Shown here one piece after another: positions 16,308-33,630 of a stretch of 64,000 nt of DNA. The notes below the pieces were generated by a model, which was given only the letters and a program-made list of their open reading frames with translations, did not search any database and had not been told where the DNA came from. Within the stretch, counting starts at the first letter, position 1. Every line of letters begins with the position of its first letter. This DNA comes from an uncultured Planctomycetota bacterium (GTDB lineage: Bacteria > Planctomycetota > UBA11346), in NCBI GenBank assembly GCA_903902515.1, contig CAIUVD010000069.1, positions 11,475 to 75,474 on the forward strand, given 5' to 3'. The translations under genes were made by a program, and so were the position numbers.

Positions 16308-16323
16308 GTCCTGGACCAACCCT

Positions 16324-16363
16324 TTCGGCTGGTGGACTTCCGGACTTCCGGACTTCCGGACTT
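16324..16363. repeat. (GGACTTCC)x4 octamer tandem repeat ending GGACCCTG
   Basis: GGACTTCCGGACTTCCGGACTTCCGGACTTCCGGACCCTG lies between the nadA stop (16376) and the Rieske start (16307). Its terminal GGACCCTGCCTCA matches the GGACCCTGACTCA terminus of the 28856-28955 array. Confidence 0.85.
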
Positions 16364-16375
16364 CCGGACCCTGCC

Positions 16376-17350
16376 TCATCCGACCGCCAGCATCCGTTCG
16401 ATCGGCAACCGGGCCCGCTCGATGAGGGTGGCGTCGAGGGTAATCTCGGGCCGACCCTCGGCCAGGCAGCGCCACAGCTTTTCGAGGGTGTTGAGGCGCA
16501 TGTGGGGGCAGGTGTTGCAGGACGTGCAGGAGCCGTCCTTGCTGCCCTTCACCGATGCGGGCGCTTCCAGGAACCGGGCCTTGGGCTGGGCCCGGCGCAT
16601 CTGGTGGATGATGCCGGGCTCGGTGACCACCAGATAGGTGCCATCGGCGGCGCCCTTCTTCACGGCTTCCAACAGGGCTTTGGTGCTGCCGACCACGTCC
16701 CCCAGGTCGCGCACGGTGGCGGGGCATTCGGGGTGGACGAGGGTGATGCAGCCGGGGTTGGCCTGCTTGAGGTCGATGATGGCCTGGGCCGAGAACAGCT
16801 CGTGGATTTCGCAGGAGCCTTCCCACAGCACCAGGTCGCGCCCGGTCTTCTGGCGCACGTAGTCGCCCAGGAAGCGGTCCGGGGCGAAAATGATGGGCTG
16901 GTCCTTCGGGATGCTCTCTACCACGGCCACGGCGTTGGAGGAGGTCACGCAGTAATCGGACAGGGCCTTCACCGCCGCCGAGGAATTGACGTAGGTCACG
17001 ACCACGTGCCCCGGGTGGGCGGCGACGAAGGCGGCGAACTCCTTGGCCGGGGCGGAATCCGCCAGGCTGCACCCGGCGGCCAGGTCCGGCAGCAACACCT
17101 GCCGCTGGGGCGAGAGGATCTTCGCGGTCTCTGCCATGAAGTGGACGCCGCAGAAAACGATGATGTCGGCCTTGGAATTGGCCGCCTCGCGGGCCAGTTG
17201 CAGACTATCGCCGATGAAGTCGGCCTGGTCCTGAATCTCGTCGGCCTGGTAGTAGTGGGCCAGGATGACGGCGTTCTTGGCCTTCTTGAGGCGCTGGATC
17301 TCGGCCGCCAGGTCGACGGGCGGGGTCAGGCGGGACAGGGGCAGGATCAT
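16376..17350 (-). CDS. nadA: Quinolinate synthase A
   Basis: Full-length match to the NadA fold: ...VILAHYYQADEIQDQADFIGDSL..., three repeated subdomains, and the CPHM/Cys cluster region (SCTSCNTCPHMR). Confidence 0.95.
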   Translation of the reverse strand: MILPLSRLTPPVDLAAEIQRLKKAKNAVILAHYYQADEIQDQADFIGDSLQLAREAANSKADIIVFCGVHFMAETAKILSPQRQVLLPDLAAGCSLADSAPAKEFAAFVAAHPGHVVVTYVNSSAAVKALSDYCVTSSNAVAVVESIPKDQPIIFAPDRFLGDYVRQKTGRDLVLWEGSCEIHELFSAQAIIDLKQANPGCITLVHPECPATVRDLGDVVGSTKALLEAVKKGAADGTYLVVTEPGIIHQMRRAQPKARFLEAPASVKGSKDGSCTSCNTCPHMRLNTLEKLWRCLAEGRPEITLDATLIERARLPIERMLAVG

Positions 17351-17409
17351 GGGCGGGAACGGTAGGCCCGCCCTTCCGCGCTCAATCGGCGCGCTACGGT
17401 GCCCGCCCC

Positions 17410-18207
17410 GTGGCTACCATCCTCGACCAGATCATCGACCACAAGCGCACCGAGATTGCCCGCCTGCCGGCGGTGGATCGCAAGGCCCTGTCCGAACTGC
17501 CCCCCACCCGGGGCTTCCGCGCGGCTCTTCAGCGGCCCAAGGGCGAACGCATTCGGGTGATTGCCGAGTGCAAGAAGGGCAGTCCCTCCAAGGGGATTTT
17601 CGTCGAGGACTACGACCCGGTCCTGACGGCCTATAAGTACCAGTTGGGCGGCGCGTCCTGCCTGTCGGTGCTGACGGACGAAAAGTTTTTCTTCGGCCAC
17701 GCCGACCACTTGAAGGCCGTCCACGCCCAGGTGTCCCTGCCGGCGATCCGCAAGGACTTCATCATCGACGACCGGCAGATCGCCCAGGCTCGCCAGTGGG
17801 GCGCCGACGCCGTGCTGCTGATTGCTGCCTGTCTGTCGGACGGGCAGATGGAGGACCTCCAGGGCCTGGCCTGGGACCTGGGCCTGGACGTCCTGGTCGA
17901 GGTCCACGACGCCGAGGAGGCGATGCGTGCCCTCAAGATCAAGGCCAACTTGGTGGGCGTGAACAATCGCAATCTCAAGGATTTCAGCATCAGCCTGAAG
18001 ACCACCTACGACCTGCTGCCGGCCCTCCTGGGCGGCGGGCGGGTGGTGGTATCTGAAAGCGGCATCAGCCACCGCGAGCAGTGCCATGAACTGGAGGAGG
18101 CCGGGGTGGACGCCGTGTTGGTCGGTGAGTCGCTTATCACCAGCGACGACCCCTCGGCAGCCCTCGCCAAACTGCGGGGCACCATCGTCCGTGGTACCCT
18201 CGGATAA
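17410..18207 (+). CDS. trpC: Indole-3-glycerol phosphate synthase
   Basis: ILDQIIDHKRTEIA, IAECKKGSPSKG, SVLTDEKFFFG, KDFIIDDRQI, VLLIAACL and ESGISHREQ are canonical TrpC motifs. Confidence 0.95.
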   Translation: MATILDQIIDHKRTEIARLPAVDRKALSELPPTRGFRAALQRPKGERIRVIAECKKGSPSKGIFVEDYDPVLTAYKYQLGGASCLSVLTDEKFFFGHADHLKAVHAQVSLPAIRKDFIIDDRQIAQARQWGADAVLLIAACLSDGQMEDLQGLAWDLGLDVLVEVHDAEEAMRALKIKANLVGVNNRNLKDFSISLKTTYDLLPALLGGGRVVVSESGISHREQCHELEEAGVDAVLVGESLITSDDPSAALAKLRGTIVRGTLG

Positions 18208-18219
18208 GCGGAGGTTCCC

Positions 18220-19092
18220 ATGCGCTTCACCAAGATGCACGGCTGCGGCAACGACTACGTCTACCTCGACGCCTTCGAGGAAACCCTGCCCAAGGACCTG
18301 GCGGGGCTGGCTCGGCGGATCAGCGATCGGCACACCGGCGTCGGCGGCGATGGCATGATCGTCCTCGCCCCACCGACCCCGGCGGCTCGGAAGAAGGGGG
18401 CCCAGGCCCGGATGCGGATGTTCAATGCCGACGGCAGCCAGAGCGAGATGTGCGGCAATGGCATCCGTTGCCTGGCCAAGTTGGCCCATGACCACGGGCG
18501 GATCGAGGGCCGGCAGCAGGTCATCGAAACCGGGGCCGGGTTGTTGACCGTGGATCTGGTCATTAAGCGCGGCTCGGTGGTCGGGGCCAGCGTGCTGATG
18601 GGTCGGCCCCGTCTGGAGCCCGCCGCCGTGCCGGTGAAGCACCCCGGCCCTGGGCCCCGGCTGCCCCTGACCCTGCGGGTCGGTGGCCACACCTGCAAAC
18701 TCCTGGCGGTCGGCATGGGCAATCCCCACGCCGTGTGTTTCGTCGAGGATCCGGACCACTACCCGGTGACGGAAGTGGGGCCCCTGATCGAGCACGACGA
18801 GGCCTTTCCCCGCCGGACCAATGTCGAGTTCGTGTGCCGCTTGGCCGACGAAAAGGGCCTGCCGGTCCTGCGGCAGCGGACCTGGGAACGCGGCAGCGGC
18901 GAAACCCTGGCCTGCGGCACGGGTTCCTGCGCCACCGTCGTGGCCGCGATCCTGACCAAGAAAATCGAGGGCCGCGAAGCCATCGTCCGCCTGTCCGGCG
19001 GCGACCTGCGGATCGCCTGGCCCGCCGATGACCAGTCCGTGCGTATGACCGGCCCGGCGGTCACGGTGTTTACCGGCACCTGGGACGCATGA
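18220..19092 (+). CDS. dapF: Diaminopimelate epimerase
   Basis: MRFTKMHGCGNDYVYLD, MFNADGSQSEMCGNGIRC and the second catalytic Cys region ERGSGETLACGTGSCA. Confidence 0.95.
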   Translation: MRFTKMHGCGNDYVYLDAFEETLPKDLAGLARRISDRHTGVGGDGMIVLAPPTPAARKKGAQARMRMFNADGSQSEMCGNGIRCLAKLAHDHGRIEGRQQVIETGAGLLTVDLVIKRGSVVGASVLMGRPRLEPAAVPVKHPGPGPRLPLTLRVGGHTCKLLAVGMGNPHAVCFVEDPDHYPVTEVGPLIEHDEAFPRRTNVEFVCRLADEKGLPVLRQRTWERGSGETLACGTGSCATVVAAILTKKIEGREAIVRLSGGDLRIAWPADDQSVRMTGPAVTVFTGTWDA

Positions 19093-19727
19093 CCCGGGGT
19101 GACCTGCTCAAGCGCGTGGCCCTCCTGCCCTTGATCATCGGGGCTGGGGTGGCGGGGGCCTATGTTGGTGTCCAGGGCCGCCCGGCCCCCGGGCCCCGGG
19201 TTGCCGATGCCCTGGTGCCCCTGGCCGAAGTGGCCACTGCCCGGGTGGAACTGCGCTCGATTCAGCGGGGAACCAGCGAGGAACATGGTTTGGTGTCCCG
19301 CAATCGGGACGAGGTGCTGATTGCCGTGGTGGTCGGTGGCGACCTCGGCATTCCCCTCGGTGACCTGACGCCGGATCGTTGGGAGGTCCGCGAGGGCGTC
19401 CTGCACATCCGGCTGCCCGCCCCGCGCCTGTTGGCCCCGGGCCTGGCGGTGGATCCGGTCCAGACCCGGGAACTGGAGACCCGCACCACCCGCTGGGAAT
19501 GGACCCGCCGCTTCAGCGATCCCGGCCCCGGCGAGGCGGCGGCCCGCTCCGCCGCCCTGGCCCGGGCGGTGGCCGAGGCCCCGGCGGTGTTCAAACGCTT
19601 GGGCCTGGAGGAGGACCTGCGGGAGACCACCCGCAAGGCCGTGACCAGCCTCCTGCCGCGTCTGCTAGGCCGCCCGGGTCTGCCGGTGGTGGTGGCGTTT
19701 GATGACGATCCCCGGGGGAACGGCTAA
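19089..19727 (+). CDS. DUF4230-like membrane-anchored hypothetical protein
   Basis: N-terminal TM helix. Overall pattern resembles DUF4230. ATGA overlap with dapF. Confidence 0.5.
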   Translation: MTRGDLLKRVALLPLIIGAGVAGAYVGVQGRPAPGPRVADALVPLAEVATARVELRSIQRGTSEEHGLVSRNRDEVLIAVVVGGDLGIPLGDLTPDRWEVREGVLHIRLPAPRLLAPGLAVDPVQTRELETRTTRWEWTRRFSDPGPGEAAARSAALARAVAEAPAVFKRLGLEEDLRETTRKAVTSLLPRLLGRPGLPVVVAFDDDPRGNG

Positions 19728-20278
19728 TGCGCCCCTGGCAATTCCTGGTTGCCCTGGCCCTGGCCTTCGGCGGTGGCTGGTGGCTGGTGCGACCATCGCC
19801 CACCGAGGTCACCGCCACCACCCTGTCCTGGGGCGTGCAGGATCTTCAGGCCATCGGCCACCTTCGCCTGCTGGCGGCCCGCATCAGCGTGTTTGAGAAG
19901 ACCGAGGGTCTTGACCCCCGGCGGCGCTACGCCGGAGTGATCCCCGTGTCCTTGGTCCTGGGCATCGACCTCGCTGGGGCCCGCCTGGTGGAGGAGGCTG
20001 GCCAACGTCGCCTAGTCCTGCCACCCGTGCGGGTGCTGCGGCGGGCCATCGATCCGGATCCCGCGGCCCGCTTCGACTGGGATGCGGCGGGGGACCAGCA
20101 CCTGCCGGGGGACTCCATCAGCCTGCCCCACCTGGCGGAACTTCAGGGCCTGCGGAGTGCCGAGCAGGAGGCCGAGCGCCTGGGCCTGTTCACCAAGTCC
20201 AAGGCCCGGGCCGAGACCCTGGTCAAGGCGTGGCTACGCGCCGGTGGCATGGCCGATGTGGCCGTCGCCTGGCGTTAA
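19727..20278 (+). CDS. Hypothetical membrane-anchored protein (DUF4230-like paralog)
   Basis: N-terminal TM helix MRPWQFLVALALAFGGGWWLV. TAATG overlap with the previous gene. Confidence 0.45.
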   Translation: MRPWQFLVALALAFGGGWWLVRPSPTEVTATTLSWGVQDLQAIGHLRLLAARISVFEKTEGLDPRRRYAGVIPVSLVLGIDLAGARLVEEAGQRRLVLPPVRVLRRAIDPDPAARFDWDAAGDQHLPGDSISLPHLAELQGLRSAEQEAERLGLFTKSKARAETLVKAWLRAGGMADVAVAWR

Positions 20279-20293
20279 GCCGGTGAACCCTCC

Positions 20294-22099
20294 ATGACGG
20301 ATCTTCCGCCCCTTCTGACCCCCATTTCCGACCGCTTGCGAGCCACCAGCCGGGGGGTGGCGCCCCTGCGGCGGCTACTGGCCTTGGTCCGCGTCGAACG
20401 TCGGCGGTTCGCCGTCGCCACGGCGTGGCAGGTTGCCCAATCCCTGGCGGCTCTGCCCTTCGCGGCTTCGGTGCAGTTCCTGTTCGACCACCTGATCCCC
20501 ATGGCCCAGCAGGACCGGGTGTGGTGGCCCCTGGCGGCCTACGCCGTGGCCTTGCTGGTGCTGTGGCCCTGCCAGGGCTGGGTGGCGGTGCGGGCCTATG
20601 CGGCGGCTGGTCTCCTCAACCGCGTCACCGTGGCCCGCCTGCGGCGCATCGTGGTCGATCAGCTGCAGCGGTTGTCGTTGTCCTATTACGCGCGACGCGG
20701 CGCGGGGACGGTGGCCAATCAACTGACCGTCGACATGGGCCGGGTTGAGGGCTTCCTCGGCACGGTTGGCAATGGCTTCGTGCCCAACCTGACCCTCGGC
20801 CTCGGGGCCACGGCGTGGCTGCTGTACACCAACCCGGTGCTGGCGGCGGTGGCCTTCCTCGGGGTGCCAGCCCAGGCGTGGATCCTCCGCCGCATGCAGG
20901 ACCGCCTGGCGGCCCACCAACGCAACGTCCAGCAGGCCGGCGAAGACTTCGCCAGCCGGATCGTCGAGTTCATCAGCGGCATGCGGGTGGCGAAGGGCCT
21001 GGGTACCGAAGACCTGGCGGCCGCTGACCTGGGCCGCTCCATCGAGCGGATCCGCGATGTCGGGATGGAAGCGGCCCTCACTAGCCGCTGGATGAGTCTG
21101 TGGGTCCAGTACGCGTGGTTCGCCAGCAGCACCCTCATCTACACCGTCGGAGCCCTGGGCATCGCCGGGTTCCTCGGGGTCGAGTTTACCGTCGGTCAGG
21201 TGGTGGCCTTCGTCGCCCTGTTCGGCTACGTCCAGGCCGGGGCCGGGGCCGTGACCGGGTTTGTCGATTCCTGGAATGCGGCCCGCCCAGCGATGCTCAA
21301 ATTGGTGGAGGTTCTCGACAGCGACGAGCTGGAGGACTACCTCAGCCCCAAGGCCCCGGTGCGCCTGGAGGGCGGGCTGTCCTTCCGCGCCGTGTCCTTC
21401 CGCTATCCGGGGACCGGCGTCGACGCCCTCACGGACCTGACCCTCGACATTCCCCCGGGCCAGACCATCGGCCTGGTGGGGGAGACCGGGGCCGGCAAAA
21501 GCACCTTCCTCGACCTCGTGCTGGGTTTTCACAAGCCGACCGCCGGGGTCATGACCTATGACGGCAAATCCCTGGCCGACATCGGTCAGCGGCAGTTGCG
21601 CCGCCAATCGGCGGTCATGACGCAGGAGGCCTTCCTGTGGAACACGACCATCAACGAGAACATCCGCCTCGGCCGCCCCGGCGCGAGCGATGCCGAGGTC
21701 ATCGCCGCCGCCGTGAAGGCCCAGGCCCACGACTTCATCAGCCGCTCTGAGCACGGCTACCACACCTCCTGCGGCGAGCGCGGCGGCAAACTCTCGGGCG
21801 GTCAGCGCCAGCGCATCGCCCTGGCTCGGGTCTTCCTGCGCGACCCCCGGCTGGTGGTCCTGGATGAGCCGACCAGCGCCCTGGACCTCGAAACTGAAGC
21901 CAAATTGCAGGAGAAACTCGAAGAACTGTGCGCCGGTCGCACAACCTTCATCGTCGCCCACCGCCTCTCGACCCTCCGCCACGTCGACCGCATCCTGGTC
22001 TTCCGCCAGGGTCGGATCGCCGAGGACGGGGCCCCGGCGGACCTGTTACAACGGGAGGACGGGCTGTTTCGCCGGCTCCACGACCTCCAGGGGTCGTGA
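20294..22099 (+). CDS. ABC exporter, fused permease/ATPase (MsbA-like lipid/multidrug exporter family)
   Basis: Six-TM N-terminal domain. Walker A GETGAGKST, signature LSGGQRQRIALARVF, Walker B LVVLDEPTSALD. Confidence 0.9.
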   Translation: MTDLPPLLTPISDRLRATSRGVAPLRRLLALVRVERRRFAVATAWQVAQSLAALPFAASVQFLFDHLIPMAQQDRVWWPLAAYAVALLVLWPCQGWVAVRAYAAAGLLNRVTVARLRRIVVDQLQRLSLSYYARRGAGTVANQLTVDMGRVEGFLGTVGNGFVPNLTLGLGATAWLLYTNPVLAAVAFLGVPAQAWILRRMQDRLAAHQRNVQQAGEDFASRIVEFISGMRVAKGLGTEDLAAADLGRSIERIRDVGMEAALTSRWMSLWVQYAWFASSTLIYTVGALGIAGFLGVEFTVGQVVAFVALFGYVQAGAGAVTGFVDSWNAARPAMLKLVEVLDSDELEDYLSPKAPVRLEGGLSFRAVSFRYPGTGVDALTDLTLDIPPGQTIGLVGETGAGKSTFLDLVLGFHKPTAGVMTYDGKSLADIGQRQLRRQSAVMTQEAFLWNTTINENIRLGRPGASDAEVIAAAVKAQAHDFISRSEHGYHTSCGERGGKLSGGQRQRIALARVFLRDPRLVVLDEPTSALDLETEAKLQEKLEELCAGRTTFIVAHRLSTLRHVDRILVFRQGRIAEDGAPADLLQREDGLFRRLHDLQGS

Positions 22100-22134
22100 T
22101 GGAGCAACAGGGGTCGCCCGTGCCACGGGGGTCC

Positions 22135-22917
22135 TCAGTCGTAGAACTCCGGATACCGCCGCAGGCGGGCGAAGGCCGTGGGGTCGTGGCCGGTGATGAC
22201 TTTAACGCCCTGATCCCGCAGGTGGCGCATCAGGTTGATGGAGTCGATGGCTTGGGAGGGGTTCTGAACCAGGCCGGGGAGGAGGTCTTCGTCGAGGATT
22301 TCCTCGGTGTAGGCCCCGTCGCCCGTTAGCAGGAAGCGGCCGTGATTCGGCAGGTCCACCAGCAGGGACTGGTGGCCGGGGGTGTGGCCGGGGGTCGGGA
22401 GGATCACCACTCGGCCGTCGCCGAAGAGGTCGCCGCGCGGGTCCTGGGGGCCGTTGAGGAGCACCCAGTCGAGGTCCGGTTTGTCGAAGTCGGCCCGGAT
22501 GTAGGCGCCCTTTTGGAAGAAGTCGGGGACGTAGGCGTAGCGCATCTCCTCCTTCTGGACGATGTAGCGGGCTTTGGGGAAATGGCCGACACCGCCGGCA
22601 TGGTCGAGGTGGAGGTGGGAGAGGATCACATGGGTGATGCGCTCGGCAGCGATCCCCGCCCAGGCCAACTGGCGGACCACGAAATCGTCCTCGGTCATCA
22701 GCGGATCATAGGCCCCGACGACCCCGGCGCCCCAGTGTTTCACCTTGTCCTGGGCGACTTCCAGGGCGTTGCCCGTGTCGTACAGGATCAGGCCCCGGGG
22801 ATGCTCGATGAGGAAGAACGGCACTGGGACCGTGAAATCCACGCCGACGTCCTTGCCCATGGTGAAGAGGTGTTTTTTGCTCTTGAGGGATCCGCATTGG
22901 AAGATCGTCAGTTTCAT
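22135..22917 (-). CDS. Metallo-beta-lactamase-fold lactonase (AHL-lactonase-like)
   Basis: HLHLDHAGG (HxHxDH) motif, GHTPGHQSL and the TGD/H downstream ligands. 260 aa starting MKLTIFQCG. The N-terminal 375 aa of tool ORF 22135..24042 is Arg/Pro-rich junk antisense to the alcohol dehydrogenase gene. Confidence 0.8.
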   Translation of the reverse strand: MKLTIFQCGSLKSKKHLFTMGKDVGVDFTVPVPFFLIEHPRGLILYDTGNALEVAQDKVKHWGAGVVGAYDPLMTEDDFVVRQLAWAGIAAERITHVILSHLHLDHAGGVGHFPKARYIVQKEEMRYAYVPDFFQKGAYIRADFDKPDLDWVLLNGPQDPRGDLFGDGRVVILPTPGHTPGHQSLLVDLPNHGRFLLTGDGAYTEEILDEDLLPGLVQNPSQAIDSINLMRHLRDQGVKVITGHDPTAFARLRRYPEFYD

Positions 22918-22973
22918 GCCGGCTCCGGTCCGGGACGGCGGGGCCGCCCGGTTGAAGTGATGGGTGAGGGGGG

Positions 22974-24095
22974 TCAGAGGATCGCGGCGTAGATGGCGGC
23001 GATCTGGTCGTGGTCGAGGGGCACGTAGTTGTTGCCGAGGAGCCGTTGCTGGGTGTTGATGACGGTTTTGGCGAACTCCGGGATCTGATCGCGGCGCATG
23101 CCGTAGTCGGTCAGGGATTTCTTCGGCAACAGGGCGTCGATCAGGTGTTCGAGGGTCAGCAGGGCGTCGAGGGGTGGGTTCCGGCCCAAGGATTTGGCGA
23201 TCAGTTTTTCGATGTGCCGGATCTTGCCGTCGGGCTTGATGCGTTTGTAGGCCCGCAGGACCGCGCACAGGCAGCGGGAATTGGCCTCGCCGTGGGGGAT
23301 ATGGAAGGTGCCGCTCAAGGGGTAGGAGATGGCGTGGACGGCCCCGACCCCGGTGTTGCCGAAGGCGATGCCGGCGTAATTGCTGCCCAGCAGCATCTCC
23401 CGGGCGATGGTCGGGATGGCGGCGGTCCGGCCGTTGTTGACGAAGTGCAGGAGGTTGTTGAGCAGCAGTTCGATGGCCCGGGTGCTGTACAGTTCTGGGT
23501 ACTCGTGGGAGCGCGGTGCCAGGTAGGATTCGATGGCATGGACGAGGGCGTCGATGCCGCTGGTGACGAAGGCGAACTCGGGCAGGCCGTGGAGGAGTTC
23601 GGGACAGACCACGGCCTCGTTGGCCAGCAGTTCCGGCACCGCGAGACCGATCTTGGTACCGAGGGACGGCACGGCGACGATGGAGATGTTGGTGACCTCG
23701 GAGCCGGTACCGCAGGTGGTGGGGATCAGGACCAGGGATTTCTCGCGGATTGCTGGCGCGGTTTTTTGGAAGATCGCCAGGGTCCGGCCGGATCGCTTGA
23801 GGGTCAGGATTTTGGCGATGTCGAGGACCGAACCGCCGCCAAGGCCGACCACCCGGTCGAAGTCCTGGCGGGCGGCGGCGTCCCACACGGCGTCGATCAT
23901 TTCGTCGGTCGGCTCCCCGGCCCCGAAGTCGTCGATGCAGATGACCCGGGTGGTGTCCGGGATTGCCCCCAGGCGGGCGGCCTGGAGGGCTTTGGCGGTG
24001 AGGATCACGTCCCGTGGTCCCAGGTCGGCCCCGGCCAGCCACTCCTGCCAGCGGTCATAGACGGTGATTTTCGGGGTGAGGGCGAAGGTCTTCAT
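22974..24095 (-). CDS. Iron-containing alcohol dehydrogenase (4-hydroxybutyrate dehydrogenase-like)
   Basis: GGGSVLDIAK glycine-rich NAD motif. Fe-ADH His cluster (AIESY...H, HAISYPLSGTFHIPHGEAN). Start at MKTFALT. Confidence 0.85.
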   Translation of the reverse strand: MKTFALTPKITVYDRWQEWLAGADLGPRDVILTAKALQAARLGAIPDTTRVICIDDFGAGEPTDEMIDAVWDAAARQDFDRVVGLGGGSVLDIAKILTLKRSGRTLAIFQKTAPAIREKSLVLIPTTCGTGSEVTNISIVAVPSLGTKIGLAVPELLANEAVVCPELLHGLPEFAFVTSGIDALVHAIESYLAPRSHEYPELYSTRAIELLLNNLLHFVNNGRTAAIPTIAREMLLGSNYAGIAFGNTGVGAVHAISYPLSGTFHIPHGEANSRCLCAVLRAYKRIKPDGKIRHIEKLIAKSLGRNPPLDALLTLEHLIDALLPKKSLTDYGMRRDQIPEFAKTVINTQQRLLGNNYVPLDHDQIAAIYAAIL

Positions 24096-24099
24096 GGCG

Positions 24100-25485
24100 T
24101 CAGCTCCAGATCTCAAGGTCGGAGGCGGCGGGCTTGTTGATGATGCCCGCGACCCGGGACACATTCATCAGGTGCTTGAAGTCGAGGTTCTCGGAAATCG
24201 AGTTATTGCCCCACGAGCCGCAGCCGAGGGTGGTGGTCGGAGCCAAGCCGTTGGTCAGGGAGCCGCCGGCGGTGGTCGCGCAGGGCTGGTTGACCACCAG
24301 GCGGCTGACCGGCAGTTCGACCCCGGCGTAGGCGATGTGGACTTGGTTCTGGCTGTGGATGCCGGCGGTGTGGCCCGCGCCCTCCATCACCAAGTTTTCC
24401 TTCGCCTTCTCGACGGCGTCCTCGAAGGAGCCGTAGGCCATGATGGCGATCACCGGGCAGAGTTTCTCCTTGGCCAAAACATCCTGGTGGCCGGCACCCC
24501 GGGCCTGGAGGACCACCAGCCGGGTGGTCTCGGGAATGTCGAGCCCGACCAGGGCCCCGATGTGGCGGCACGACTTGCCGACCACGTCCTTGTTGAGGGC
24601 GCCGTTGGGGAACAGCAGGGAACGGAAGACCTCGGTGGTCTCGCCGTCCTCGGTATACCACACCCGGGGCATGGCCTTGAGGATGGCGACGGCCTCGGCC
24701 ATTTTTTCCTCGGGGATGAGGATGAACTGCTCGTGGGAGCAGATGATGCCGTTGTCGAAGGAGGCGCCGATCTCGATTTTGCGCAGGGCATCGGCGAGGT
24801 CCGCGTCGCGGTCGATGATCACCGGCACATTGCCGGCTCCGACTCCGAGGGACGGCCGACCGCTGGAGTAGGCCGACTTGACCATCGCCCCGCCCCCCGT
24901 GGCCACCACCACGTCCACCTGCTTCATCAGGTCCTGGGTGGTGGCGAGGGTGCCGTTGGTCACCACCTGCACGAGGTGTCGGGGCCCGCCATGGCGGACG
25001 ATGATCTCCTGGAAGGCGGCCGTCAGGTGCTCGGCGCACTTCTGGGCCTTGGGGTGGGAGGCGAAAATAATCGCGTTGCCCGCCTTGATGGCGAACATCG
25101 CGTTGCACATCGGGGTGACGATGGGATTCGTGATCGGGGTCACGGCGCCGACCACCCCCATCGGTTTGGCGATGTAGACCAGGGCCTTCTTCGGATCCTC
25201 GTCGATCACCCCCCGGGACTTCTTGCCCTTGAGGCTGTTCCAAATGGCCCGGGACTTACCGATTTTCTTGAGGACCTTGTCCTCGACGTTCCCGAGGCCG
25301 GTTTCCTGGCAGGCCATCTCAGACAGGGGTCGGGCGTGGTCATAGACGTACTTGCCGATGTCGCGGACGATGGCGTCCACCACCTCTTGCGAAGCACTCT
25401 CGAATTCGGCCTGGGCATACCTCGCCTTTGCCACCAGGGAGGAAACGAGGTCGTGGTGATGGGGGGGTGCAGGGGTGTGGGTCAT
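24100..25485 (-). CDS. CoA-acylating aldehyde dehydrogenase (succinate-semialdehyde dehydrogenase SucD / PduP / EutE family)
   Basis: ALDH fold with catalytic Cys region (FDNGIICSHEQ). Lacks the classic ALDH Glu motif, as in CoA-acylating ALDHs. Length ~460 aa. Adjacent to an Fe-ADH, as in sucD-4hbD gene pairs. Confidence 0.8.
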   Translation of the reverse strand: MTHTPAPPHHHDLVSSLVAKARYAQAEFESASQEVVDAIVRDIGKYVYDHARPLSEMACQETGLGNVEDKVLKKIGKSRAIWNSLKGKKSRGVIDEDPKKALVYIAKPMGVVGAVTPITNPIVTPMCNAMFAIKAGNAIIFASHPKAQKCAEHLTAAFQEIIVRHGGPRHLVQVVTNGTLATTQDLMKQVDVVVATGGGAMVKSAYSSGRPSLGVGAGNVPVIIDRDADLADALRKIEIGASFDNGIICSHEQFILIPEEKMAEAVAILKAMPRVWYTEDGETTEVFRSLLFPNGALNKDVVGKSCRHIGALVGLDIPETTRLVVLQARGAGHQDVLAKEKLCPVIAIMAYGSFEDAVEKAKENLVMEGAGHTAGIHSQNQVHIAYAGVELPVSRLVVNQPCATTAGGSLTNGLAPTTTLGCGSWGNNSISENLDFKHLMNVSRVAGIINKPAASDLEIWS

Positions 25486-25789
25486 GATTTTGGGGAGTTT
25501 TGCCACCAACGCCGACTCTCTACAAGATAACAAGATAAGAATGCCCGATTAATGAAAGTGCATGTTCACCATCCCGATTGAACATGGAAAATAGTGCAGA
25601 AACATTCAGGAAACACGCATGAGTGGCCCGTGGCGTGATCGCTTTTGATGGGCGGCGTTGGGCTCCTACCGGCCTGGAATCCATGAAAACCCGGGAGCTA
25701 TACCCGTTGTAATCCCTTGTCTTATCAAGATTATTCTGTAAAAGTATGCTGCGTTGCAGTCCTCGACTTGTCCCCCCAAAGGCGTCCTC
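25486..25789. promoter_or_regulatory. AT-rich divergent control region between the aldehyde dehydrogenase operon and LacI
   Basis: Markedly lower GC than flanks. Inverted repeat CATGTTCA-N10-TGAACATG (~25552-25577). Repeated CAAGATAA / CTTATCAAGATTA elements near both ends. Confidence 0.5.
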
Positions 25790-26842
25790 ATGACCTCGAT
25801 TACTGTGGTTGCCAAGGCGGCTGGCGTGTCCATCGCCACCGTGTCTCGGGTTATCAACCACCTGCCCCAGGTGGCTCCAGATACCGCCGCGGCGGTCCAC
25901 CGGGCCATGGAAGAGGTTGGCTACCGGCCTAATCGGATGTCCCATCGTCGGGCCCGGGATGCGGCGCCCCAGTCTTGGCCAGCGGGGGTGCGTCACGGCA
26001 GCGTCGCCATCCTGTTTCCCGACACCCGGGAGGAGGCCCTGCGGACCGCCCTCAGCGGCCGGTTGGTCCATGGGGTGAATACCGCCCTGTCCCCGGTCGG
26101 CATGACCATCGTCAGCACCCCCCTGACCTATGATGGCGGACTGCCGTCGATGGTCGCCAGCGGGGCGGTGGATGGTCTAATTGTGCGGACGACGGTCCCC
26201 GTGGCCCACTTGGTCGCGGCCATTCCCCCGATGCCCATCGTGTGGCTCCTGGAACTTACCGAATCCTACCTGCCTCGGGGCGATCAGGTGTTAGAGGATA
26301 CCGCCGCCATCGGGCGTCTGGCGGCCCGACAGTTGCTGGCCCGGGGTCACCGCCGCCTGGCGATCCTCAATCACGAGCCCGCCCATCCCAGCTACCAACG
26401 TCGCACGCGGGCGTTCCTTGCCGAGGCCCAGGCCGCCGGAGCCCAGGTCGACGTCCTGGAACCCCCTTCGGCTATCAGCCCCGAGGAGATACCGACCCTG
26501 GTTCAGCGGTTCCGCGATCTGCCGGATCGGCCCACGGGCATGTTGCTGCCGGTCAGTGACGCCGGATTGGTGATCTTCCACCGGGCGCTCATCGACCTTG
26601 GCCTGCGCTCGGGCACGGATCTGGAGATCGTGGCCTGTGCCAATGACCTGTTCTTGCCCGAGGCCCTGGGCCACGGCCTGTTCAACATCAATATCCATCC
26701 CGAAGCCATCGCCCAGGCCGCCGGCGACCTGTTGCTGTGGCGCCTTGCCAACCTCGACGCTCCCCGGCGCCGGGTGCTGATCGAGCCGTCCCTCGACCTG
26801 ACGGCGGCCGGGGACGCCCGCAAGAAGCCCTGGGCGACGTAA
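25790..26842 (+). CDS. LacI-family transcriptional regulator
   Basis: N-terminal HTH MTSITVVAKAAGVSIATVSRVINH. Periplasmic-binding-fold effector domain. Divergent from the catabolic cassette. Confidence 0.9.
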   Translation: MTSITVVAKAAGVSIATVSRVINHLPQVAPDTAAAVHRAMEEVGYRPNRMSHRRARDAAPQSWPAGVRHGSVAILFPDTREEALRTALSGRLVHGVNTALSPVGMTIVSTPLTYDGGLPSMVASGAVDGLIVRTTVPVAHLVAAIPPMPIVWLLELTESYLPRGDQVLEDTAAIGRLAARQLLARGHRRLAILNHEPAHPSYQRRTRAFLAEAQAAGAQVDVLEPPSAISPEEIPTLVQRFRDLPDRPTGMLLPVSDAGLVIFHRALIDLGLRSGTDLEIVACANDLFLPEALGHGLFNINIHPEAIAQAAGDLLLWRLANLDAPRRRVLIEPSLDLTAAGDARKKPWAT

Positions 26843-26893
26843 CCCCGTCGCCCCCCCCTTGCGGCGGCTGGCAGCCGCCATCATCCCCAGCCC

Positions 26894-28756
26894 ATGGCAG
26901 GCTTCCTCGGCGATGATCAGGTGCGGCGCGTCAAGGACGCCATCGACATCGTGCAGTTGATGGGCGAGTACGCGGCCCTGCGCAAATCCGGCAAAACCTT
27001 CGCCTGCTGCTGCCCGTTCCATCAGGAGCGGTCCCCCAGTTGCTACGTCTACCCGGATACCCAGTCCTACTACTGCTTCGGCTGCCAGGCCCACGGTGAC
27101 GCCATCAGCCTGATCCGGGCCAAGGAGAACGTCAGTTTTACGGACGCCCTGGAGTTGCTGGCCCGCCGGGCCGGCATCACCCTGGTCTACGAGAACAGCC
27201 GGGGCAACGACCGGGGCGAGCGCGATACGTTGATCGCCGCCTGCAACTTCGCGACCCAGTTCTACGAGAAATGCCTGTGGGAGGACGACGGTGCCGCTGC
27301 CGCCCGGGCCTACCTGCTGGAACGCCGCCAACTGGCCAAAACCACCTGTGAACGGTTCCGCCTCGGCTGGTCCCCGGGCCGAGGGGCCCTGGTGGATGCG
27401 GCCAAGCGCAAGGGCCTCGACCCCCAGATTCTGGCTCGCCTGGATCTCGCGGTCGAGCGGGATGGCCGCCTGGTGGACCGCTTCTATGAACGGGTGATGT
27501 TCCCGATTTGCGACCGTTTTGGGAATCCCCTGGCCTTCAGTGCGCGCCTGCTGCCGGAGGCGGAAAAAGCCGCCAAGGAAGCCGGTCGTGGCGTCGGCAA
27601 ATACGTCAACAACACCGACACGCCGCTTTACCACAAGGGCAGCACGGTGTTCAACCTCCACCGTGCCCGGACCGTCGCCCGGGATGCCGGTCGATTAATC
27701 GTCATGGAGGGCCCGACGGATGTCATGGCCGCCGACCAGGCGGGCATCGGCGAATGCGTGGCCGTCCTTGGCACCGCCCTGACCCCCGAGCATGCCAAGC
27801 AGCTCGGTGCCCTGGTCGGCGACAAGGGGCGCCTGTTGCTGCTCCTCGACGGCGACCGGGCTGGTCAGACCAATGCCCTCAAAGGCATCCGCACCTGCCT
27901 CGCGGTGGGCGTCCCCGTGCGGGTGGCGATCCTGCCGGATGAGCTCGATCCGTCGGAACTCCTGGCCGAGGGCCCCGGCGGCGTCGCCTCGCCTGAGGCC
28001 AAGGCGACCTTTGAAAAAGTCCTGGCCAGCGCCCGGGCCGACCTCGACCACCTCCTGCGGGCCACGGCCCCCCGGCCCTACGATCTGGCCCGGGACGATC
28101 TGGTGCGGGCGGTGGACGAAATCCTGGCGGTGGTTCGGCCCATGCCCGACGCCGAACAGCGGACCCTGGCCCTGGGCGAGGTCGCCGAGTGGTTCAACCT
28201 CCCCAAGGACCGCCTGGCCAAACGCTTGGCGGAGGGGGCCCCAACGGCCACCGCCGCCGCCTCGCCCGAAGCCGCCGCCCCGCCCATCGAACCTCCGACC
28301 ACCGCCGGCGAAGTGGTCCTCCATCTGCTCGTTGCCCACCCGTCCCTGCGGGCCGTAGCCGCCGACGACCTGGGCCTAGAGCCCAGCCATCTGCCGACTC
28401 CGTGGTCCGACCTCCTCGGTGCCCTCCTGACCCTGCCGGACGCCGACCCCGACGCCCTGTGCGCTGCGGAGGGCGTCGCCACCCACGAGGGCCTCCAGGC
28501 CGCCGTCCGCCGCTGGGCCGCGACGCCCATCGACGCCCGCCTACGGGGCAACACCGCCCCCCGGCCCGAAGGCGACGACCTCCGCCCGGAACTGGAAAGC
28601 CGCATCCGCCAACTGCGCCGGGCGGCCATCGAGCACGACATCCACCGCCTGGGTGCCGAGATCAAGGACGCCGAACGGGCTCGGGATTTTGCGCGCATCA
28701 AGGCGCTGATGGTCGAACGTTCAGAGTACCAGCGGCAGGCGCGGGATTTGGCGTGA
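26894..28756 (+). CDS. dnaG: DNA primase
   Basis: CHC2 zinc finger (CCCPFHQERSPSCYV...CFGCQAHGD). TOPRIM domain (VMEGPTDVMA...LLLDGDRAGQ). Confidence 0.95.
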   Translation: MAGFLGDDQVRRVKDAIDIVQLMGEYAALRKSGKTFACCCPFHQERSPSCYVYPDTQSYYCFGCQAHGDAISLIRAKENVSFTDALELLARRAGITLVYENSRGNDRGERDTLIAACNFATQFYEKCLWEDDGAAAARAYLLERRQLAKTTCERFRLGWSPGRGALVDAAKRKGLDPQILARLDLAVERDGRLVDRFYERVMFPICDRFGNPLAFSARLLPEAEKAAKEAGRGVGKYVNNTDTPLYHKGSTVFNLHRARTVARDAGRLIVMEGPTDVMAADQAGIGECVAVLGTALTPEHAKQLGALVGDKGRLLLLLDGDRAGQTNALKGIRTCLAVGVPVRVAILPDELDPSELLAEGPGGVASPEAKATFEKVLASARADLDHLLRATAPRPYDLARDDLVRAVDEILAVVRPMPDAEQRTLALGEVAEWFNLPKDRLAKRLAEGAPTATAAASPEAAAPPIEPPTTAGEVVLHLLVAHPSLRAVAADDLGLEPSHLPTPWSDLLGALLTLPDADPDALCAAEGVATHEGLQAAVRRWAATPIDARLRGNTAPRPEGDDLRPELESRIRQLRRAAIEHDIHRLGAEIKDAERARDFARIKALMVERSEYQRQARDLA

Positions 28757-28855
28757 GGGGCTTTCGACCTTATTGAAGTCCGGGGTCCGTGGTCAAAGAC
28801 AGGATCACTGCGGTGTTTCCAACGCCGGGGCTATTCCCACGCCGGGGGCCTCGCG

Positions 28856-28955
28856 GGACCCCGGACCCCGGACCCCGGACCCCGGACCTGAAGTGACCCC
28901 GGACCCCGGACCCCGGACCCCGGACCTGAAGTGACCCCGGACCCCGGACCCTGAC
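28856..28955. repeat. Higher-order minisatellite: [(CCCCGGA)x4-CC-TGAAGTGA]x2 + truncated third copy; G-rich (G4-competent) on the minus strand
   Basis: Two identical 38-bp super-units plus CCCCGGACCCCGGACCCTGAC. Ends 1 nt before the ATPase stop codon at 28956-28958. Confidence 0.9.
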
Positions 28956-30140
28956 TCACCGATCCGAACTCGGCATCACCCGCCGCATGAACTGATCGAA
29001 CAACGGCACGGTGAACGCCAGGTCGCCGTGGGCCGGGCTGTAAATCATGCCCTTGGCGATCAGCTTGGCCCGCACGGGACCGACGCTGTTGACCTTCACC
29101 CCCATACGATCGGCGATGACCCCCACCCGCTGAGGTTCCGGCCCCAAGTCAGCCATGGCCCGCAGGAATCGTTTTTCGCTGGGGGTCAGGCGATCAAAGC
29201 GGACGCGGAAGAAGTTCTGGTCGAGGCGCTGTACGGCCACCGGAGTGGCCGCACGGACGACCTCGACCGTGATGTTCGGGGTCGGCGCACTGTTCCAGGC
29301 CTGGTACCCCCATTCCTGGACAAAATAGGGGTAGCCGGTGGTGAAGCGGAAGATCTCCGCCAGGGCTTCGGTGGTGAACGCGGCGTTGGCCGCCCGGGCG
29401 GGATCCTGAAGGGCCCGGGCGGAGTCGGACTGGGACAGGGCCCCGATGTCCGGGAAGGCGAACAGCCGTTCGGCGTAGGATTTCGATTCGCCGGCCAGGC
29501 CCGGCAGGATCGGCAAACCGGCCCCGATCAGCACCAGCGGAAGTTGCCGCTGCTGCATCTTGTGCATGGCCATGATGAGGGCGCCGAGCTCCTTGGCGGT
29601 GAAATACTGGACCTCGTCGATCAGCAGGGCGACGGCGACGCCCCGATCCTGGGCGGCCTCGGCCACCGCCACGAACAGGTGGGGGAGGTCGATTTCGATG
29701 TCGCCACTGTCGGCGGACCCGGTTTCAGGATCCACGTCAAGGGACAGGGACAGGTCCTGGAATTCGACCTTGATGGTGCCAATGAAACTCCGCAGGACCG
29801 ACAGGGCCCGGCGGACCCGATGCCCGGTCCCCGCGAGGCGACTGAGGTCGTAGAGCAGGGACCGGAGGTGGGGGGCCAGGAACGGTCCCAGGGGTTTGCC
29901 TTCGTGGGCTTCAATCAGGATGGCGCGGTAGTCAGCGGACTCTGCCAGACGATGGATCTCATTGAGCAGCACCGTCTTGCCGGTTCCCCGCAGGCCGGTC
30001 AGCAAGAGGCTTTTCTCGGCCTTTCCGGCCTTGATGCGGTGCAGCAGCACATGGGCCTGTTCCAGCACCGGCTGGCGACCGACGAGTTCGGGTGGCGGGG
30101 CGCCGGCACCGGGGGAAAACGGGTTAGCGATGGCATCCAT
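28956..30140 (-). CDS. Orphan AAA+ ATPase (Arch_ATPase/DUF234-like) with C-terminal winged-helix-like region
   Basis: Walker A LLTGLRGTGKTVLL. Walker B ALLIDEVQ. ~150-aa C-terminal domain with helix-rich DNA-binding character. Confidence 0.75.
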   Translation of the reverse strand: MDAIANPFSPGAGAPPPELVGRQPVLEQAHVLLHRIKAGKAEKSLLLTGLRGTGKTVLLNEIHRLAESADYRAILIEAHEGKPLGPFLAPHLRSLLYDLSRLAGTGHRVRRALSVLRSFIGTIKVEFQDLSLSLDVDPETGSADSGDIEIDLPHLFVAVAEAAQDRGVAVALLIDEVQYFTAKELGALIMAMHKMQQRQLPLVLIGAGLPILPGLAGESKSYAERLFAFPDIGALSQSDSARALQDPARAANAAFTTEALAEIFRFTTGYPYFVQEWGYQAWNSAPTPNITVEVVRAATPVAVQRLDQNFFRVRFDRLTPSEKRFLRAMADLGPEPQRVGVIADRMGVKVNSVGPVRAKLIAKGMIYSPAHGDLAFTVPLFDQFMRRVMPSSDR

Positions 30141-30145
30141 AGGGA

Positions 30146-30179
30146 TTGCTACCTGATACTACCTCATTTCAGGTAGCAA
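30146..30179. promoter_or_regulatory. Perfect 11-bp inverted repeat TTGCTACCTGA-N12-TCAGGTAGCAA
   Basis: Seen directly. Lies 6 nt upstream of the ATPase ATG (30140, minus) and ~70 nt upstream of the DUF309 gene (plus). Confidence 0.7.
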
Positions 30180-30247
30180 CGTGTAGCATTGGTTAGGAGT
30201 CCATCGGGCGGAGGGGGTCCGTGGCCTCTCCATCCCCATTCCTGAGC

Positions 30248-30661
30248 ATGCCCAGGGCGATGTCAGTACTCCCTCCCGAGGATCCCTTCCGCCCCGCCCG
30301 CGTCCTCCCGCGCGATGCCGGGTACCCGTCGTCAGACCTCCCACGCCTCCACCACGGGGCCCAATTGTTTGACGCCGGTCAGCCCTGGCATGCCCATGAG
30401 GTCTGGGAGGAGGCGTGGAAGGAGGACCGCAGCGCCCAGCGGGACGCCTGGAAGGGTCTGATCCAGGTGGCGGCGGCTGTCTATCACCTCCAACGGGGGA
30501 ATCCGGGGCCGGTTCCGGCCCTGCTGGTCCGGGCGAGGATCCACCTGGAGGGTCATGGCCACCACCTCAGCCCTGACCCCCAGGCGCTGATTCAGGCCTG
30601 TCGGCGGCTGGAAGCGACCGGCGAGGTTCCGGTCCTGGGGCCCCTGGTGCACCGGGTCTGA
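30248..30661 (+). CDS. DUF309 domain protein
   Basis: HEVWEEAWKE...GLIQVAAAVYHLQRGN matches the DUF309 core. Confidence 0.6.
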   Translation: MPRAMSVLPPEDPFRPARVLPRDAGYPSSDLPRLHHGAQLFDAGQPWHAHEVWEEAWKEDRSAQRDAWKGLIQVAAAVYHLQRGNPGPVPALLVRARIHLEGHGHHLSPDPQALIQACRRLEATGEVPVLGPLVHRV

Positions 30662-30695
30662 CGGGGAAGCCCATTGTCCGCCGCCCCAGCGGCCG

Positions 30696-31055
30696 ATGGT
30701 CGCGGATGTGATCAACAACATCATTTGCCAGGAAGTCTCCGAAAAGCCCCTCGACGGCCTCTTCGAGATGAACATCTACAACGATGACGGCTTCCACGAC
30801 CACCCGCCCTACCGGGCGATCCTGACCTGGCTGGCGGACCACCTCAACGCCATCGGCCATCCCACCGTCCTGACGTTGCCCAAGGTCAAAGAGGACGAGG
30901 ACGAGGTCGATGCTTCCATCACCGTCGATAAAATGACCTTCCCGGTCTATTTCGAAAATTCCCTGGGCTACATCGCCTGGTACTCGTCCCAGCGTGGCAA
31001 CCTGTTGAAAATCGCCCGGCTGATCCACAACGTTCGGCCGCAGATTCCGACCTAG
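30696..31055 (+). CDS. Hypothetical protein
   Basis: 119-aa ORF with good GC3 codon bias. No recognisable motif. Confidence 0.45.
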   Translation: MVADVINNIICQEVSEKPLDGLFEMNIYNDDGFHDHPPYRAILTWLADHLNAIGHPTVLTLPKVKEDEDEVDASITVDKMTFPVYFENSLGYIAWYSSQRGNLLKIARLIHNVRPQIPT

Positions 31056-31186
31056 GGACCCGGCGGGATGCGCGCCCTACGGCAGGATGGTGGGGCATCG
31101 CCGGGGTCGCCTCACGGAACCAGAGGGGGTCGTGCTTGCGGAATTGTGACCTCGTGATCCCGATGTCCTGCGCTCCAATCGCCGGC

Positions 31187-32713
31187 ATGGATACTTTACC
31201 GAGCATGACCGTCCCGTTACTCCCCGGCGAGCGTTGGTGGGGAGGGTGCGTCGACGATGGGTACCAGATGCCATTTGCCTCGGGGTTCCAGCGGGATTTG
31301 CGTTCCCAACAGAATAACCAGGTGATGCCCCTGCTGGTGTCGAGCCATGGCCGTCACCTCTGGAGCGAGACCATCTTCGCGGTCGCCGTCGATGACCAGG
31401 CCCTGACCATCACCGGCGGCGCCCCCGTGCTGGCGGAGCCGGGGGGTGGTCTGCGGGGCGCCGTCCTCGGGGCCGCCCAGGCCTATTTCCCGCCGTCGGG
31501 CATGGTGCCCCATCCCCTGCTGTTCACCCATCCCCAGTACAACACCTGGATTGAGCTGCAGTACGAACAGTCCCAGGAGGGTGTTCTGGCCTATGCCGAA
31601 CGGATCATCGCGGAGGGCTATCCCCCCGGTGTTTTGATGATCGACGACACCTGGCAGCGGGACTACGGCGATTGGCGCTTCGACCACGCGCGCTTCCCGG
31701 ATCCCAAGGCCATGGTGGATCGCCTCCATGCCCTCGGCTTCCTGGTCATGCTGTGGGTCAGCCCCCAGATTTCCCCGAATGGCCGCCTGTACCTTGACCT
31801 GCGGGACCAGGGATTGTTGGTTCGTGACGCGACCGGCGAGCCGGCCATCCGTGCCTGGTGGAACGGCCACAGCGCGATCCTCGACATGACCAATCCGGCC
31901 GCCATCGCCTGGCTGGAGGGGCGTCTGCGGGCCCTGGAAACCGCCACGGGCGTGGAGGGCTGGAAGTTCGATGCCGGGGATTTCAGCCATTACCGTGACG
32001 ATGATCGCATCCATGTGCCGGGACCGGCCGCCAGCCAGACCCAGGCCTGGGCTGCCTTCGCGGAACGCTGGCCCCTCAATGAATTGCGGGCCTGCTGGAA
32101 GATGGGCAACCGTCCCCTGGTCCAGCGTCTGTGCGACAAGTTGCATGTGTGGGAGCCCCTGGGCGGGATCGCCGGATGCGTCCCCAACGTCCTCGCCCTT
32201 GGCCTGCTGGGTCACCCGTTCTCGTGCCCGGATCTCATTGGCGGTGGTGAATACCGCAGTTTCAACGAGCACCGCGATCAATTGGACCAGGAGCTGTTCG
32301 TCCGTCATGCCCAGTTGAGCGCCTTGTTGCCGATGCAGCAATTCAGCGCCGCGCCGTGGCGCTTCCTCGATGCGGCCCACGCCGACCTCTGCCGTCAGGC
32401 GGCCGTGCTGCACACCGCCTTCGGTGAACGGATCGCGGCCCTGGCCAAGGACGCGGCCCGGACGGGCATCCCCATCGTCCGTCCCCTAGCCTGGGTCTGG
32501 GCAGACCCCCGCGCCCTGGCCGTGAACGATCAGTTCCTCCTGGGGGATGACGTGCTGGTGGCGCCGGTGGTGACCAAGGGCGCACGCGCCCGCAAGGTCC
32601 TGGTGCCACCGGGCCGGTGGCGGGAAGCCCGGGGCCAGGAGGTGGACGGACCTGTCGAGGTGGTGGTGGACGCTCCCCTGGACCACCTGCCCCGCTTCAC
32701 CCGGGTCGGGTGA
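31187..32713 (+). CDS. Glycoside hydrolase family 31 (YicI-like alpha-xylosidase/alpha-glucosidase)
   Basis: GVLMIDDTWQ (substrate-binding hIDD.W block) and GWKFDAGD (VKTDFGE-like acid/base block), with the GH31 size and layout. Start is uncertain (MDTLPSM at ~31187 or MTVPLL). Confidence 0.7.
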   Translation: MDTLPSMTVPLLPGERWWGGCVDDGYQMPFASGFQRDLRSQQNNQVMPLLVSSHGRHLWSETIFAVAVDDQALTITGGAPVLAEPGGGLRGAVLGAAQAYFPPSGMVPHPLLFTHPQYNTWIELQYEQSQEGVLAYAERIIAEGYPPGVLMIDDTWQRDYGDWRFDHARFPDPKAMVDRLHALGFLVMLWVSPQISPNGRLYLDLRDQGLLVRDATGEPAIRAWWNGHSAILDMTNPAAIAWLEGRLRALETATGVEGWKFDAGDFSHYRDDDRIHVPGPAASQTQAWAAFAERWPLNELRACWKMGNRPLVQRLCDKLHVWEPLGGIAGCVPNVLALGLLGHPFSCPDLIGGGEYRSFNEHRDQLDQELFVRHAQLSALLPMQQFSAAPWRFLDAAHADLCRQAAVLHTAFGERIAALAKDAARTGIPIVRPLAWVWADPRALAVNDQFLLGDDVLVAPVVTKGARARKVLVPPGRWREARGQEVDGPVEVVVDAPLDHLPRFTRVG

Positions 32714-33544: not shown

Positions 33545-33630
33545 AACGGGCGATACTTGCGATGGGGGCGAGCGGAGAACAGGCTCCCGAGCTCTTTTGG
33601 CGGCGGTGCATCATCCATGCGCGCGGGCAC

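Follow-up and report, generated by a model that had tools for sequence, protein, structure and literature searches.

Three adjacent genes on the minus strand of a 64,000-nucleotide stretch of DNA from an uncultured Planctomycetota bacterium (contig CAIUVD010000069.1; the whole stretch is called the window here) encode a lactonase, an iron-dependent alcohol dehydrogenase (Fe-ADH), and an aldehyde dehydrogenase (ALDH), and are divergent from a gene for a LacI-family regulator (Table 1). The three genes probably form a catabolic operon for the conversion of gamma-butyrolactone (GBL) to 4-hydroxybutyrate (4HB), succinate semialdehyde (SSA), and finally succinyl-CoA, and the cassette is most likely a rare variant of the Agrobacterium operon for GBL breakdown rather than a new kind of system. 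The sequence shows to which families the enzymes belong, that their catalytic and specificity residues are kept, that the genes are spaced as in an operon, and that the trio recurs in two more lineages; the substrates, flux direction, co-transcription, and regulation are inferred. A preliminary description, made from the letters and their open reading frames (ORFs), had proposed the same route, and all sequence-level tests agree with it, both in the matches to SucD, Cvir-Hbd2 (Hbd2 of Clostridium viride), and AttM/BlcC and in the residues that are kept; the blcR-blcABC precedent in Agrobacterium was overlooked there, and the route is a variant of a known pathway.

In the proposed pathway, a single catabolic operon would bring GBL, or free 4HB, into the tricarboxylic acid cycle. 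A cytoplasmic AttM-type di-metal lactonase would open the GBL ring to give 4HB, an iron-dependent dehydrogenase would convert 4HB to SSA, and a SucD-type enzyme working in the oxidative direction would combine the aldehyde with CoA and NAD(P)+ to form succinyl-CoA via a thiohemiacetal on Cys249. Succinyl-CoA could then yield ATP or GTP via succinyl-CoA synthetase, so that the route would conserve energy, unlike its Agrobacterium BlcC-BlcB-BlcA counterpart, whose end product is free succinate.

Re-reading of the ORFs and their junctions, together with the Pfam matches, bore out the gene boundaries of the preliminary description and its gaps of 4 nt and 56 nt. The shorter gap, between the ALDH and Fe-ADH genes, reads TGAcgccATG, with GGAG 8 nt 5' of the Fe-ADH ATG. 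The GC content at third codon positions (GC3) of the three operon genes is 0.87-0.90 and matches that of the host genes; recent horizontal import of the cassette is ruled out because GC3 is host-like. Relatives at about 80% NadA identity retain only trpC-nadA-Rieske, a synteny too eroded to bear on insertion of the cassette.

Table 1. Features of the cassette and its divergent intergenic region, in window positions.
Feature	Position	Strand	Size	Details
Lactonase gene	22135-22917	-	260 aa	last gene of the operon; Pfam Lactamase_B
Spacer between Fe-ADH and lactonase genes	22918-22973	-	56 nt	GGAG 6 nt 5' of the lactonase ATG
Fe-ADH gene	22974-24095	-	373 aa	Pfam Fe-ADH/ADH_Fe_C
ALDH gene (sucD-like)	24100-25485	-	461 aa	first gene of the operon; Pfam Aldedh
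Divergent intergenic region	25486-25789	.	304 bp	49% GC; presumed promoters of the operon and lacI
LacI-family gene (lacI)	25790-26842	+	350 aa	Pfam LacI (PF00356) and Peripla_BP_3 (PF13377)
Perfect inverted repeat CATGTTCA-N10-TGAACATG	arms 25561-25568 and 25579-25586	.		76-101 nt 5' of the sucD-like ATG; candidate regulator site
Tandem ACAAGATA x2 (25522-25537), then GATAAGA	25522-25540	-		operon-sense TCTTATC 48 nt 5' of the sucD-like ATG
TCTTATCAAGAT with TCTTATC	25720-25731	+		sense, 63 nt 5' of the lacI ATG

The Agrobacterium blcABC operon degrades GBL via gamma-hydroxybutyrate (GHB) and SSA, and is induced by GBL, GHB, and SSA, but not by N-acyl homoserine lactones (AHLs) (PMC5924552). 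On pAtC58, the divergent IclR-family gene blcR comes first, followed by the genes for an SSA dehydrogenase (SSADH) and an Fe-ADH, and by attM. The window has in common with blcR-blcABC (attJ-attKLM) a layout of divergent regulator, ALDH, Fe-ADH, and AttM-type lactonase in last place, the same three chemical steps as those proposed here, and, between BlcB and the window Fe-ADH, the metal ligands as well as the substrate Tyr and Arg. The differences lie in the parts: blcA encodes an NAD-dependent non-acylating SSADH that forms succinate, whereas the SucD-type enzyme of the window is predicted to form succinyl-CoA; the window Fe-ADH is of the clostridial Hbd and not the BlcB subfamily; and the blc regulator (BlcR/AttJ) is of the IclR family, whereas the divergent regulator of the window is of the LacI family, with no BlcR homologue in the 20 kb around the cassette (14001-34000). 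The blc operon is carried on a rhizobial megaplasmid, while the window locus is chromosomal and belongs to a bacterium that its NadA relatives place in the Planctomycetes-Verrucomicrobia-Chlamydiae (PVC) group, probably Planctomycetota. The adjacent sucD-4hbD pairs of Clostridium kluyveri and Porphyromonas gingivalis are of the same subfamilies as the SucD-type enzyme and Fe-ADH of the window; there they form the reductive succinate-to-4HB arm of the fermentation of succinate and gamma-aminobutyric acid (GABA), while the window adds a lactonase. No natural lactonase/sucD/4hbD operon was found in the literature searched, an incomplete set in which only engineered combinations turned up.

Enzymes of the proposed operon

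The top PDB match of the ALDH is SucD from C. kluyveri (CkSucD; 8CEI, 488 bits), to which it is 53% identical, and the next is an acetaldehyde dehydrogenase (310 bits). In CkSucD, Cys242 is catalytic together with the His364/Thr365 pair, while Lys66, Lys70, Ser243, and Thr395 form a pocket that binds the distal carboxylate (PMC10249356). All of CkSucD K66, K70, T112, C242, S243, H364, T365, and T395 are kept in the ALDH, whose K77, C249, S250, H372, T373, and T404 correspond to K70, C242, S243, H364, T365, and T395. To the non-acylating SSADH BlcA the ALDH has next to no relation (44 bits). By these matches and residues, the ALDH is predicted to be a SucD-type CoA-acylating SSADH (succinyl-CoA reductase). 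A role with sulfoacetaldehyde, raised by SauS and SarD among the NCBIfam matches, was rejected; both are far under cutoff, and the SucD and Hbd2 matches in the PDB are much stronger and residue-specific. Stand-alone SucD homologues with 62-68% identity to the ALDH occur in high-GC soil metagenome contigs (L098-L128) and have no conserved neighbors.

For the Fe-ADH, the top PDB match is Cvir-Hbd2 (30SM, 333 bits; 45% identity), with the runner-up at 101 bits, whereas BlcB of Agrobacterium is just 36% identical to it. The metal ligands of the Asp-His3 site (D182, H186, H254, and H268) are kept, as are Y258, N272, and R351, the equivalents of Cvir-Hbd2 Y256, N270, and R348. Cvir-Hbd2 was shown in 2026 to be highly selective for 4HB, and in its family 5-hydroxyvalerate (5HV) is more than 100-fold worse; position 256 is Tyr in this enzyme and His in the 5HV dehydrogenase and most other Fe-ADHs, Arg348 at the tunnel mouth binds the carboxylate, and Asn34 and Tyr36 touch the adenosine 2'-OH of NAD (PMC13495136). 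A member of the identical-sequence cluster of the window Fe-ADH carries the label "4-hydroxybutyrate dehydrogenase" at the Joint Genome Institute (JGI). The Fe-ADH is thus predicted to be a clostridial-type 4HB dehydrogenase (Hbd/4HbD, cd14860).

Aligned from end to end, the lactonase shares 46% identity with AttM/BlcC of A. fabrum C58, and its top NCBIfam model is AttM (NF045700, 297 bits). The top PDB match, 9khq (213 bits), is an AttM-family enzyme too, scoring 416 bits against C58 AttM. The catalytic motif is complete, and H101xH103xD105H106, H178, D200, Y203, and H244 are invariant in 34 relatives. The alignments place the lactonase in the AttM/BlcC clade, in a sister group mostly from anaerobes and metagenome-assembled genomes (MAGs), and its predicted activity is that of a gamma-butyrolactonase.

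Relatives and their gene neighborhoods

Neighbors were scored within 5 kb of the lactonase gene in 80 species-representative genome loci with AttM-like lactonases, and 47 of the 80 have a 4HB-related enzyme at this distance. The partners differ: an SSADH with a BlcB-type Fe-ADH, usually with an IclR regulator (12 loci); a BlcB-type Fe-ADH alone (12); a 4HB CoA-transferase (Cat2) and/or 4-hydroxybutyryl-CoA dehydratase (AbfD) (10); the long Fe-ADH typified by locus L008 alone (7), with an SSADH (2), or with an aldehyde:ferredoxin oxidoreductase (AOR) (2); a SucD-type ALDH with a BlcB-type Fe-ADH (1, Methylococcus MAG L017); and an Fe-ADH of the window type alone (1, L009). The remaining 33 loci have no listed 4HB-related neighbor. 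The identities of Cat2 and AbfD were checked against PDB 3EH7 (485 bits) and 1U8V (708 bits). This repeated linkage of the lactonase clade to 4HB enzymes independently favors GBL as its physiological lactone and 4HB as its product.

The exact trio of the window is found in none of the 80 loci. L088 and L091 do carry it; these two further metagenomic lineages have the closest metagenomic relatives of the lactonase, with identities to the window of 73-74% for the lactonase, 71-76% for SucD, and 57-58% for the Fe-ADH. The cassette is thus genuine and conserved, but seldom found. A SucD alignment scan of JGI metagenome contigs also returned 80 loci, of which about 36 have a SucD-4HbD pair, mostly from gut metagenomes; none of these pairs has a lactonase nearby, and the gut pairs have no Cat2 or AbfD within 6 kb.

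Several arrangements among the relatives stand apart from the window. Lactonases adjoin Cat2 and/or AbfD in L015:2117-7780 (a Desulfobacter MAG), L011, L012, L014, L020, L021, L023, L029, L031, and L032; these lactonases are 49-62% identical to that of the window, and a PAS/sigma-54 activator is usual. Such loci of anaerobes share with the window the lactonase clade and the inferred product 4HB, but 4HB would be activated to its CoA ester and dehydrated to crotonyl-CoA instead of being oxidized, and the regulator is usually a PAS/sigma-54 activator. Anaerobes with this arrangement may use GBL by way of crotonyl-CoA or recover the GBL that arises from 4HB-CoA, and no description of the arrangement was found in the literature searched. 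In Chloroflexia MAGs and one metagenome contig (L008:3097-7783, L075, and L092:244-4988), the lactonase follows a tungsten-type AOR and an Fe-ADH of about 430 aa, a third aldehyde-oxidizing option within the same three-step logic. L017:678-5519 has an amino-acid permease, a SucD-type ALDH (44% identity), a BlcB-type Fe-ADH, and a lactonase; it is a hybrid of both operon types and the only SucD-containing locus among the 80 species representatives. A thiamine-diphosphate enzyme and a window-type 4HB dehydrogenase are neighbors in L009:2500-7777 (Ca. Caenarcanum bioreactoricola, 28% GC), some 1.7 kb away from the lactonase, and the former may be a supplier of SSA of the 2-oxoglutarate-decarboxylase type.

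Divergent region and the LacI-family regulator

The divergent region is AT-rich, as the preliminary description had stated, with a GC content well under the approximately 68% of the whole window. The inverted repeat and repeated elements reported there are also present at their sites, but their reading as LacI operators found no support. The inverted repeat occurs once in the window even at 3 mismatches, while at least one match was found in 8 of 100 shuffles, and perfect repeats (arms of 8 nt, spacers of 0-14 nt) arose in 40 of 1000 shuffles of the 304-bp region. The repeat thus exists but barely exceeds chance, and is suggestive at most. Its half-site centers are 18 bp apart, an atypical geometry for a LacI-family operator.

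A second set of elements recurs ahead of both divergent genes. A related copy of ACAAGATA, TATCAAGAT, lies at 25723-25731. GATAAGA/TCTTATC has just two copies in the 64 kb (25534-25540 and 25720-25726), one sense-oriented 5' of each divergent gene, and TCTTATC ahead of both genes is a small point in favor of shared control. CCCCAAA stands directly before both start codons (25489-25495 and 25774-25780). The pairs of TCTTATC and CCCCAAA may be a shared regulatory signature or one of promoter or leader; alignment of the two sense-oriented upstream regions gave short common motifs only.

The LacI-family protein has an N-terminal LacI helix-turn-helix and an effector domain like those of periplasmic binding proteins. 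As the neighbor of the operon it may, with somewhat less than even confidence, repress the operon and itself, with SSA or 4HB as effector. Control of the cassette by this protein finds no support beyond adjacency, and three results count against it. A search of the divergent region for contiguous palindromes gave at best 6 of 8 positions, and 288 of 300 shuffles did as well. The closest LacI homologues (47-54% identity) adjoin prepilin-like genes, a radical-SAM gene, or pectinases in the three examined. The sister cassette in L088 has no LacI and instead a sigma-54 (NtrC-type) response regulator upstream; that in L091 likewise has no LacI, and upstream of it are a hydrogenase-like sensor and then an unannotated ORF. 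No motif is common to the divergent region and the upstream regions of LacI homologues, and no NCBIfam equivalog matches the LacI protein at cutoff. In the window itself, two adjacent proteins with prepilin-type N-terminal methylation motifs, typical of PVC-group bacteria, are encoded at 34524-36204, and such genes adjoin homologues of the window LacI in L095 and L096. The gene for DNA primase, dnaG, begins 51 nt after the LacI gene on the same strand (26842-26894), an odd pairing that could mean read-through.

Searches for other signals returned little. Consensus scans for sigma-70-type promoters and intrinsic terminators had zero matches in 21900-27000, the 56-nt spacer included, and therefore neither support nor refute co-transcription. 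The operon strand of 25486-25789 yielded no sigma-54 promoter, and matches across the window did not exceed chance frequency. Rfam models gave nothing at E <= 0.1 in 20-29 kb and nothing at gathering score across the window, and no riboswitch, leader RNA, or tRNA was found. For a hairpin between convergent stop codons, shuffles do equally well.

Alternative readings and wider context

Several further points weigh against the GBL pathway or limit it. SucD and clostridial 4HbD are best known as reductive enzymes, and flux direction is not fixed by sequence. The 297 bits of the lactonase fall short of the NF045700 equivalog cutoff of 390. Its substrate range is not readable from sequence, because AttM/BlcC and its relatives also hydrolyze many AHLs (PMC5924552). 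In the Fe-ADH, both positions equivalent to the NAD contacts N34 and Y36 of Cvir-Hbd2 are Ala, so that its cofactor use is uncertain and its preference may differ from that of Cvir-Hbd2; the position of Asn34 is Val in the Fe-ADHs of L088, L091, and L009. No transporter gene or source of GBL is evident in the window. Three things nevertheless favor the oxidative direction: the genes are laid out as in blc, the operon includes the lactonase, and the 64 kb have no CoA-transferase or dehydratase genes.

If flux were instead reductive, SucD and 4HbD would carry succinyl-CoA via SSA to 4HB in a fermentation, as they do in C. kluyveri or Porphyromonas; the 4HB would enter a Cat2/AbfD route that leads to crotonyl-CoA and butyrate and has its genes elsewhere in the genome, and the lactonase would repair GBL formed spontaneously from 4-hydroxybutyryl-CoA. 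Both dehydrogenases are nearest to enzymes characterized in the reductive pathway, ten relatives of the lactonase adjoin Cat2 and/or AbfD in anaerobes, and 4HB-CoA lactonizes spontaneously in engineered 1,4-butanediol strains. The source contigs are from stratified-lake metagenomes by their sample names, and an oxygen-stratified lake makes anaerobes plausible. Neither cat2 nor abfD was found in the 64-kb window, L088, or L091; this local absence proves little, since the gut SucD-4HbD pairs also have neither gene close by. The gene order and divergent regulator are those of the catabolic blc operon, however, and a dedicated local regulator would better suit inducible catabolism than a central fermentation arm. 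The fermentative direction is considered unlikely.

The same chemistry could also serve another substrate, such as delta-valerolactone and 5-hydroxyvalerate leading to glutaryl-CoA, or a substituted or sugar-derived gamma-lactone, which would fit a LacI regulator in a polysaccharide degrader. Most LacI-family proteins respond to sugars or sugar acids; glycoside hydrolases, heparinase-like genes, and AraC regulators abound in the window; and identity to characterized enzymes is only 45-53%. However, the Fe-ADH has the 4HB-type Tyr (256 in Cvir-Hbd2) where the 5HV enzyme has His, and it keeps the Arg (348), the succinyl-specific K70, S243, and T395 are kept in the SucD-type ALDH, lactonases of the clade occur with genuine 4HB CoA-transferase and dehydratase, and it is doubtful in the first place that LacI is tied to the cassette, leaving a different substrate only a slim chance. 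A lactonase that mainly quenches the AHLs of neighboring cells, with dehydrogenases loosely connected to it (for example, through SSA or GABA-derived carbon), is very improbable: AttM/BlcC-type enzymes do cleave AHLs and the best-scoring entries in NCBIfam and the PDB all bear the name "N-acyl homoserine lactonase," but the clade is tied to 4HB enzymes in sulfate reducers, Chloroflexia, and Bacillota, which are not known for AHL signaling, even the Agrobacterium operon does not respond to AHLs, and N-acyl-homoserine, the product of AHL ring opening, would be an unexpected substrate for a 4HB-selective dehydrogenase family that already handles 5HV so poorly, which also makes chemically unlikely the suggestion of the preliminary description that AHL quenching feeds the same oxidation steps.

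If the GBL pathway is correct, the GBL/GHB catabolism of plant-associated Proteobacteria extends to PVC-group lake bacteria, with the thioester conserved as succinyl-CoA, and the cassette would be a clear case of non-orthologous replacement of enzymes and regulator inside a conserved operon layout. Caution would also be due in naming every AttM-like protein a quorum-quenching lactonase, as the neighbors in most of the contexts sampled indicate C4 carbon metabolism. The cassette does not overturn current understanding. A natural lactonase/4HbD/SucD set could serve the engineering of 4HB, poly-4-hydroxybutyrate (P4HB), and 1,4-butanediol, as well as biosensing of GHB and GBL. A broader proposal, offered tentatively and with more doubt than confidence, is that AttM-clade lactonases provide entry into, or salvage for, a widespread, undescribed metabolism of 4HB and GBL in anaerobic and uncultured bacteria that uses at least four interchangeable modules (SSADH, SucD, tungsten-type AOR, and CoA-transferase with dehydratase), with the window as the rare energy-conserving SucD version under a LacI repressor co-opted for the sensing of a C4 acid or aldehyde that is not a sugar.

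Elsewhere in the window, three paralogous heparinase II/III-like genes stand in a row (39232-47077) behind an AraC regulator (38377-39210), in surroundings rich in polysaccharide degradation that include GH31, a raffinose-synthase-like gene, AXE1, and BNR proteins. A 725-aa protein encoded at 7326-9503 combines NHL repeats with cytochrome c motifs like those of di-haem cytochrome c peroxidase and RoxA.

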